Below, piece after piece: positions 38,947 through 39,028 of a stretch of DNA of 64,000 nt. Each line of letters begins with the position of its first letter. The stretch's first letter is position 1. Position numbers and translations under genes: made by a program. This DNA comes from Nautiliales bacterium (GTDB lineage: Bacteria > Campylobacterota > Campylobacteria > Campylobacterales > JAADDX01): assembly GCA_030826765.1 (NCBI GenBank), contig JAUUDM010000029.1:42181-106180 (forward strand). Reading direction: 5' to 3'. The notes beneath the pieces are model-generated. The model made no database searches and was not told where the DNA came from. It was given only the letters and a program-made list of their open reading frames with translations.

Positions 38947-39009
38947 GAATTCTCCTTTGTTTTGTTTGTAAAATTATAATATTATTTAGATTAATTTTTA
39001 TATAGATAG

Positions 39010-39028
39010 TTGCTTAAATTTTAAGCAA
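39010..39028. promoter_or_regulatory. 19-bp perfect palindrome TTGCTTAAA-T-TTTAAGCAA upstream of glnK-amtB (same dyad as 21690..21706)
   Basis: The 17-bp core at 39011..39027 is identical to the site at 21690..21706. It lies 32 nt from the minus-strand TATAAT (38978..38973) and 65 nt upstream of the glnK ATG. Confidence 0.6.

Follow-up and report, generated by a model that had tools for sequence, protein, structure and literature searches.

The stretch of DNA analysed here, 64,000 nucleotides (nt) of contig JAUUDM010000029.1 from a Nautiliales bacterium (assembly GCA_030826765.1; hereafter the window), contains genes for two ammonium transporters, two PII proteins and a glutamine synthetase, and our subject is a short dyad that is repeated in front of them. 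The glnK gene (38608..38946, minus strand) encodes a PII protein of 112 amino acids (aa) that matches the Pfam P-II family; the NCBIfam PII models are its best matches, below their equivalog cut-offs. It is overlapped by 14 nt by amtB (37329..38621, minus strand), whose 430-aa product matches Pfam Ammonium_transp and, above the subfamily cut-off, NCBIfam amt, and is 82-86% identical to the AmtB of Caminibacter; its homologues put the organism among the Nautiliales. A fully identical AmtB is on record only on contigs of 3.7 kb, and an exact search for either of the two PII proteins gave no match. Downstream of amtB lies the gene of protein X (36438..37298, minus strand; 286 aa), which has no match in Pfam or NCBIfam and is 44% identical to the product of the gene after amtB in C. 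mediatlanticus. A gene in the position of X also follows amtB in four of six Nautiliaceae loci, and X is probably co-transcribed with glnK-amtB. The second transporter gene, amt1 (20457..21623, minus strand; 388 aa), is above the Pfam Ammonium_transp cut-off. Its best NCBIfam matches are the ammonium-transporter models, the 'marine subtype' being the closest, but it stays below their cut-offs. The Amt1 and AmtB proteins are only 32% identical. Divergent from amt1 is PII-1 (21764..22102, plus strand), an apparently monocistronic gene for a 112-aa protein of the Pfam P-II family. The type I glutamine synthetase (472 aa; Pfam Gln-synt_N and Gln-synt_C; NCBIfam GlnA, 632 bits) is encoded by glnA (49225..50643, plus strand).

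The palindrome TTGCTTAAATTTTAAGCAA (dyad site 2, 39010..39028; no strand is assigned to the dyads) is the proposed operator of glnK-amtB. A preliminary description of this DNA had read it as perfect over 19 bp, and a new reading of the sequence agrees (9+1+9). The placement given there also holds, except that 31 nt and not 32 lie between the palindrome and the TATAAT, and that the edge of the dyad is 64 nt and not 65 from the glnK ATG. There are exactly two occurrences of the 17-mer TGCTTAAATTTTAAGCA in the window, one at 39011-39027 and one at 21690-21706, the latter within dyad site 1, TTGCTTAAATTTTAAGCAG (21689..21707). The two cores, reported before as identical, are so on the plus strand, but in the orientation of the genes they differ in the central base (T versus A) and agree at 16 of 17 positions. 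Site 1 had been thought to occupy the same position before a paralogous operon; actually, it is located in the intergenic region between the divergent amt1 and the lone PII-1, and is the proposed operator common to both promoters. Moreover, relaxed searches of the window gave dyad site 3, TTGATTAAAATTTAATCAC (49137..49155), 70 nt before the glnA start, so that the copies are three instead of two. Sites 1 and 2 have the form TGCTTAA...TTAAGCA and the glnA dyad has the A/T consensus form.

The bare statistics of the palindrome and of the repeat are weak. Perfect 8+1+8 palindromes number 8 in the window against a mean of 5.6 in shuffles of this 27% GC sequence, and repeated 17-mers average 11 in the shuffles. 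The significance of the dyad comes instead from its context. Three of the eight perfect palindromes are the promoter dyads of amt/PII, glnK-amtB and glnA, and a weight matrix built from related sites, trained in part on the same three window dyads that it scores highest, gives them 21-22 bits (21.0, 22.2 and 22.1 for sites 1, 2 and 3, respectively), the next best match in the 64 kb reaching 14.2. By our own estimate, the chance of an identical copy of a 17-mer of such composition anywhere in the window is about 4e-5. The earlier opinion that the repeat is unlikely to be accidental is upheld by its location at nitrogen promoters and not by the counts.

An origin as a chance AT-rich palindrome, or as an RNA hairpin acting as terminator of the upstream gene or as a leader structure, would agree with the abundance of perfect palindromes in the window and with the capacity of the dyads to fold, as RNA, into hairpins of only -3 to -8 kcal/mol. 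The GC-rich stem with a U-tract downstream of a gene that defines an intrinsic terminator is not seen, however: the dyad hairpins have no U-tract, a terminator scan of the dyad regions found none, and no Rfam family matches at the dyads. Sites 1 and 3 have divergent genes on either side and hence no transcript to end, and the dyad, which precedes the -10 box, stays outside the transcripts of these promoters. Together with an enrichment at nitrogen genes that cannot be accidental (see below), these observations leave chance or a hairpin with a negligible probability.

At glnK-amtB, the first base of the -10 box TATAAT (38973..38978, minus strand) is 41 bp from the dyad centre at 39019. The amt1 box TATAAT (21652..21657, minus strand) is likewise 41 bp from its dyad centre at 21698, and that of glnA (TATAAT, 49186..49191, plus strand) 40 bp from the centre at 49146. 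The likely -10 box of PII-1, TAAAAT (21738..21743, plus strand), is found 40 bp from the centre at 21698, an alternative being TATGAT at 21733-21738, 35 bp from the same centre. At site 1, two divergent -10 boxes are thus arranged symmetrically about a single dyad. A scan with the promoter consensus gave no -35-containing promoter at glnK and a single weak match (9/12) at site 1, fewer than in shuffles. A sigma-54 promoter (GG-N10-GC) was not found: from the dyad to each ATG, GG occurs only in the ribosome-binding site. When 35 nitrogen-linked promoters were aligned on the -10 box, no position between the dyad and the box exceeded 0.45 bit, and therefore no -35 element is conserved in them. 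In this alignment CA is enriched 11-12 nt past the start of the -10 box, and GGAG is located about 15 nt after the CA. The enriched CA is the likely transcription start site, and it would place the dyad centre at about -52/-53 and the proximal edge at about -44.

The two PII proteins are identical at 101 of 112 positions (90%). Their coding DNA is 90.3% identical (78% at third codon positions; 29 of the 37 four-fold sites agree), and the longest exact runs reach 46 nt, which indicates that the duplication, or a gene conversion, is not ancient. This similarity is what would be expected if the second copy of the dyad had merely been carried along when the PII gene and its promoter were duplicated, a possibility raised in the preliminary description. 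In that case, to judge from the silent sites, the copied promoter should still be about 78% identical. However, in an ungapped comparison anchored on the dyad, 16-17 of the 17 dyad positions agree, as against 20 of 51 upstream of it (39%) and 12 of 30 from the dyad to the -10 box (40%), and a flank identity of 39-40% is chance level for such an AT-rich composition. A block TAAaCTAAA...TTACAA in the gapped alignment of the PII promoters was considered as a sign of wider homology and discarded; it consists of the -10 box and the TTACAA start region, offset by 3 nt. Furthermore, the two PII genes are on opposite strands while the 17-mers match on the plus strand, and the central base that consequently differs in gene orientation argues against simple co-duplication. 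Promoters of non-paralogous genes (glnA, amt1, narK-like, nirA-like) have the same motif too, and it is found in other taxonomic orders. Hitch-hiking of the dyad with the gene is thus very improbable. The alternative given in the same description, selection on the dyad itself, stands, since the alignment of the PII upstream regions confines the identity to the dyad with no duplication of uniform identity, and the motif is found as well at glnA, in other species and at metagenomic promoters.

Six orthologous glnK-amtB loci were compared, and the best dyad of each begins 80-84 nt ahead of the glnK ATG. The dyads are GTGTTTAAAATTTATACAA in C. pacificus, TTGATTAAAACTTAATCAA in C. mediatlanticus, ATGTATAAAATTTAATCAC in C. 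profundus, ATGTATATTTTTTAATCAA in Nautilia profundicola, ATGATTAGTTTTTAAACAA in N. lithotrophica and GTGATTAATTTTTAATCAA in a metagenome-assembled genome (MAG). The promoter flanks are dissimilar except between the two Nautilia, and in both of these another site lies 22 bp farther upstream. A TATAAT or TAAAAT begins 40-41 bp from the dyad centre in the six loci, and this spacing is repeated at the amtB promoter of a Sulfurovum MAG (41 bp) and at a porin promoter of the Campylobacterales, both of which were found independently.

A scan of metagenomes was carried out with a pattern that used no gene function (TGNTTAA-N3-TTAANCA followed, after 30-33 nt, by TATAAT). It gave at least 84 sites on at least 80 loci, and the genes whose start lies 26-35 nt after the -10 box belong to recurrent families. 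Among the matches listed, to which all the following counts refer, 37 of 84 sites precede nitrogen-linked or porin-type genes, and these 37 represent 36 distinct promoters (at most 85% identical over 120 nt). Amt transporters of both paralogue types account for 13 sites, NarK-family transporters of the major facilitator superfamily for 9, ferredoxin-nitrite-reductase-like (NirA-like) proteins for 4, porins for 4, GlnA for 2, an Fe-S/DmsC subunit beside NasC/NasA-like molybdoenzymes (nitrate-reductase clusters) for 2, and PII, Gcw_chp and DUF3373 for 1 each. Such families make up well under 1% of a genome by our own estimate. The small open reading frames (ORFs) behind the other sites look like chance matches. 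At the free positions 3/15, A/T is present in 25 of the 37 nitrogen-linked sites versus 10 of the 47 others, the centre is all A/T in 36 of 37 versus 33 of 47, and the gap between dyad and -10 box is 30-32, never 33, in the nitrogen-linked sites. These preferences define the consensus TGATTAA-WWW-TTAATCA, of which the window form with C/G at positions 3/15 is, from the sites aligned, a minority variant. A GC fraction of the contigs of 0.29-0.46, AmtB identities of 54-65% and the dyad of the Sulfurovum MAG amtB show that the motif reaches beyond Nautiliales. 

Tandem dyads occur in metagenomic Campylobacterota nitrate-assimilation clusters (L091 1569-1694, L149 and L123 4402-4531); in L091 they lie in the space from which narK-like and Fe-S/DmsC genes diverge, separated by 34 bp, and in L123 they precede a nirA-like gene, with 76 bp separating them. 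A separate scan of genome contigs for PII proteins gave mainly alphaproteobacterial PII, with a best identity of 73% among the matches listed. An AT-rich 19+1+19 near-palindrome, TTGCTCAATATTTAATCAA-c-TTGATTAAATATTAGGCAC, precedes glnB-glnA by about 260-300 nt in one alphaproteobacterial MAG of 52% GC (L035, 2703-2741). The Campylobacterota matrix gives 16 bits to its arms, a likeness that is unexpected in an unrelated, GC-rich genome.

Two properties expected of an operator are found: the same dyad precedes related but non-paralogous operons (amt1/PII-1, glnK-amtB and glnA in the window, and those of the metagenomes), and its position is conserved across species while the flanks diverge. From this pattern of occurrence, the dyad is very probably a transcription-factor site of a nitrogen regulon.

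A candidate for the protein that binds it comes from the relatives. In the six Nautiliaceae loci glnK-amtB is followed, with X between in four of them, by the genes of two proteins, Y (220-224 aa) and Z (210-220 aa), in the order glnK-amtB-(X)-Y-Z. Y ends in a Fis-type helix-turn-helix (HTH; HTH_8) and its matches to NtrC-family models cover the Walker A segment and, farther on, the part from PLRERxEDI to the C-terminal HTH. Against NtrC1 of Aquifex (4l4u), positions 2-48 of the Y profile align with residues 145-191 and positions 97-242 with residues 298-446; from these two blocks, Y has no receiver domain and lacks about 58 residues of the AAA core. The GAFTGA motif is confined to eight long enhancer-binding proteins near the end of the list of hits and is present in none of the short members of the Y family, for which an exhaustive HMMER search gave 104 cluster representatives at E <0.001, mostly of 220-266 aa. 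The few representatives with a named source are labelled as Campylobacterota, Epsilonproteobacteria or Campylobacterales. Z has a PAS-like N-terminus and a faint match to NtrB.

The pair is found in other arrangements as well. In the Sulfurovum MAG, a Y-like gene (HTH_8, E = 7e-8) and a Z-like gene (29% identity, E = 7e-21) lie directly upstream of dyad-amtB-glnK, and a further perfect dyad is located 24 nt before the Y-like ATG. A Campylobacterales MAG has the order porin-dyad-Y-Z adjoining glnD-gltD-gltB; the porin TATAAT is 41 bp from this dyad, which is the only strong one in 7.6 kb. In Lebetimonas and one other lineage the order is Y-Z-RNase T, away from nitrogen genes. All Y genes have in common an extended -10 promoter, TTGnTATAAT. 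Two matches to the weight matrix at Y genes were considered as signs of autoregulation and rejected: GTGATTATGTTTTTAGCAA, at the Nautiliaceae Y start, overlaps the conserved start codon, and TTGCTATAATTTTAATCAA, in Lebetimonas, is the extended -10 box itself (TGnTATAAT). As a separate observation, Y and Z are joined by an RNase T/ExoX-like gene in a conserved trio that recurs in several lineages of Campylobacterota, with or without adjacent nitrogen genes (L081-L083, L086-L088, L209, L212).

Taking these domain and neighbourhood data together, we give about even chances to a regulator of the Y family, which would be an NtrC derivative with a Fis-type HTH, a truncated sigma-54-type AAA domain and no receiver domain. 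The dyad could also be a nitrogen-regulon operator whose regulator comes from another family, with Y-Z unrelated to it, an explanation that is possible but somewhat doubtful. It would account for the absence of both Y and Z from the 64-kb window and for their location beside RNase T in Lebetimonas and the other lineage, which means that the linkage with nitrogen genes is not universal and that the pair could serve another function. The inner half-site bases are, in addition, unlike those of the NtrC box, and an odd-spaced 17-bp dyad is also typical of the MerR-type proteins TnrA and GlnR. On the other hand, Y-Z adjoin amtB-glnK or glnD-gltDB in three lineages and in three gene orders, dyads directly flank Y in two of these three lineages, Y has the Fis-type HTH of NtrC, and the classical NtrC box is itself a 17-bp TGC...GCA dyad. 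Furthermore, beside 34 nitrogen-linked metagenomic loci no other regulator gene recurs. In the window, no DNA-binding domain was detected in the 43 ORFs scanned out of 64 of at least 90 aa. The recurrent neighbour of the nitrogen-linked metagenomic sites, an 832-aa protein, reads by eye as GyrA, and others as response-regulator/kinase hybrid-like and TonB-like proteins; none of them is a transcription factor, and they were discarded as regulators.

The NtrC enhancer sites of Proteobacteria (TGCACC-N5-GGTGCA) are similar to the dyad in being odd-spaced over 17 bp with TG(C)...(G)CA ends, and candidate Y has the Fis-type HTH and the remains of the AAA domain of NtrC. NtrC regulons have been reconstructed in 19 proteobacterial groups and have the same core content as the dyad targets, that is, glnA, amtB, glnK/glnB and nitrate assimilation; the epsilonproteobacteria were left out because they have no orthologues of the target regulators, NtrC included (PMC5343134). 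The inner half-site differs, however (ACC in NtrC sites, TTAA in the dyad). NtrC sites are placed at least 100 bp upstream of a sigma-54 -24/-12 promoter, whereas the dyad is at about -52/-53 of a TATAAT promoter, and NtrC contains a receiver domain and GAFTGA, both of which are missing in candidate Y. A cognate NtrC (receiver, GAFTGA AAA+ and HTH) is not encoded among the scanned ORFs of the window. Another parallel is the NtrC of Rhodobacter capsulatus, which activates RpoN-independent promoters and is an NtrC-type protein driving nitrogen genes without sigma-54. This protein keeps the receiver and a complete ATPase domain and binds tandem upstream sites, whereas candidate Y has both domains lost or truncated and the dyad is usually single and promoter-proximal.

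The TnrA/GlnR box of Firmicutes, TGTNAN7TNACA, is likewise a dyad of 17 bp that ends in TG...CA and has A/T at its centre. TnrA/GlnR boxes precede amtB-glnK (nrgAB), glnA and nitrate-assimilation genes, as the dyad does, and those through which TnrA activates have their centre about 50 bp before the start, near the place of the dyad. The dyad consensus TGATTAAWWWTTAATCA, however, mismatches TGTNA-N7-TNACA at positions 3, 5, 13 and 15. TnrA and GlnR are MerR-type proteins controlled by glutamine synthetase; none was seen among the scanned window ORFs, with no search aimed at such proteins. The NtcA sites of cyanobacteria (GTA-N8-TAC at -41.5; PMC3898017) are similar in that a dyad stands at a fixed distance from a -10 box in promoters without -35, but they differ in sequence, in their even spacer, in being one helical turn nearer the promoter and in binding a CRP-family protein. 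CRP/FNR-family sites in general (NtcA, FNR, NssR) are even-spaced, 5-4-5 or 5-6-5, at -41.5, as opposed to the 7-3-7 arrangement of the dyad at about -52/-53. In their architecture, NtcA and TnrA promoters are the closest analogues of the dyad promoters. The dyad is best described as a site that would work like an NtcA- or TnrA-type promoter-proximal activator site, yet falls outside the NtrC/sigma-54, TnrA/GlnR and CRP-family site classes.

Taking into account the position, the distribution and the symmetry of the dyad, we propose the following model. A dimeric transcription factor would bind the dyad upstream of nitrogen-assimilation genes, the targets being here amt1, PII-1, glnK-amtB-X and glnA and, in relatives, additionally narK-like, nirA-like, nitrate-reductase-cluster subunit and porin genes. 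With the dyad centre 40-41 bp ahead of a TATAAT-type -10 box, about -52/-53 from the presumed start, in promoters without -35, the bound protein would recruit or stabilise the sigma-70-type RNA polymerase at nitrogen limitation, and a single dimer bound at site 1 would serve both divergent promoters. That the dyad is the operator of a dimeric factor controlling a nitrogen-assimilation regulon, taken as a whole, can be held with good confidence from the comparisons made. With somewhat less assurance, we favour as its mechanism activation through recruitment or stabilisation of RNA polymerase under nitrogen limitation, since a strict single distance, the absence of a -35 element and one dyad for two divergent promoters are the usual signature of an activator in contact with the polymerase.

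A repressor acting in the manner of AmtR or NrpR would use the dyad in the opposite sense, shutting the nitrogen genes when nitrogen is plentiful, for example by blocking contacts of the polymerase alpha C-terminal domain with an UP element. Palindromic operators of nitrogen repressors are common, and the sequence by itself does not tell activation from repression. The perfect dyad 24 nt before the Y-like ATG in the Sulfurovum MAG must overlap the core promoter or the leader there, which is a repressing position. Repressor sites, however, as a rule cover part of the -35, the -10 or the start and tolerate variable positions, whereas at all of the more than 40 nitrogen promoters the whole site precedes the -35 position and keeps strictly to a distance of 40-41 bp from the -10 box, and no -35 is conserved. 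The symmetric location of the dyad between two divergent -10 boxes also suits recruitment better, and repression is therefore unlikely.

Several observations weigh against the proposed operator with an activating factor, besides those already given on the absence of Y and Z from the window and on their incomplete linkage. Three amt-PII loci of Arcobacteraceae/Campylobacterales have no strong dyad. The PII-1 -10 box is ambiguous, at 40 or 35 bp. Activation is preferred to repression from the geometry and the missing -35 alone, and promoters of Campylobacterota generally have no -35. Finally, the metagenome scan, which demanded TATAAT and comprises the matches listed, samples the regulon and is no full list of it.

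If the operator is combined with the candidate pair, Y, as a remnant of NtrC without receiver and GAFTGA, would bind TGATTAA-N3-TTAATCA at about -52/-53 and directly activate sigma-70-type promoters. Z, a PAS/NtrB remnant with no evident phosphotransfer partner, would set the activity of Y, perhaps relaying the PII signal. Joining these steps, a stripped-down descendant of NtrBC would run the entire nitrogen regulon of the vent Campylobacterota that lack canonical NtrBC; we offer this joint scheme tentatively, at rather less than even chances. Were it true, the classical Ntr system would have been rewired to become independent of phosphorylation and of sigma-54, and the assignment of Y-Z would mean that a family of enhancer-binding proteins had turned into a conventional promoter-proximal activator.

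Campylobacterota are the dominant chemolithoautotrophs at hydrothermal vents, and we found no account of their nitrogen control. The available part of the N. profundicola genome paper reports two AmtB, GOGAT and glutamine synthetase and names no regulator for them. A literature search, with subscription journals outside it, gave no description of the dyad motif or of a nitrogen regulator in these taxa. The dyad is, accordingly, best described as a nitrogen-regulon operator of vent Campylobacterota for which no prior description was found. It offers a cis-element that is precise and easy to mutate, a predicted regulon (two Amt types, PII, glutamine synthetase, NarK, NirA, the nitrate-reductase cluster and porins) and a specific candidate regulator pair, which together make the sensing of nitrogen and the response to it directly testable in these bacteria.

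With regard to the surroundings of the dyad genes, a DUF2603 gene (39097-39477, minus strand) ends 69 nt upstream of dyad site 2 and is preceded by an aspartate/ornithine carbamoyltransferase gene (39462-40436); the flank of glnK in Caminibacter and Nautilia, unlike that of the window, consists of FeThRed_B/rhodanese genes. Directly downstream of glnK-amtB-X a double-Cache sensor histidine kinase is encoded (34328-36244, minus strand), with no response regulator adjacent. Just downstream of amt1, a gene at 18410-20440 (plus strand) codes for a 676-aa fusion of TIGR03546 and TIGR03545 domains (DUF2062).

Another repeat was noticed in the window, the G/C-containing 18-mer ATAATTTCAGCCTAATTT, which is present at 3157-3175 and at 54244-54262 on opposite strands. 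The first copy is the -10/start region just ahead of a tRNA cluster (tRNAs 3183-3717), and the second points into an unannotated gap of 130 nt beside smpB (53726-54178). The repeat may be a common stable-RNA promoter, whose second copy would precede an RNA not called by Rfam.

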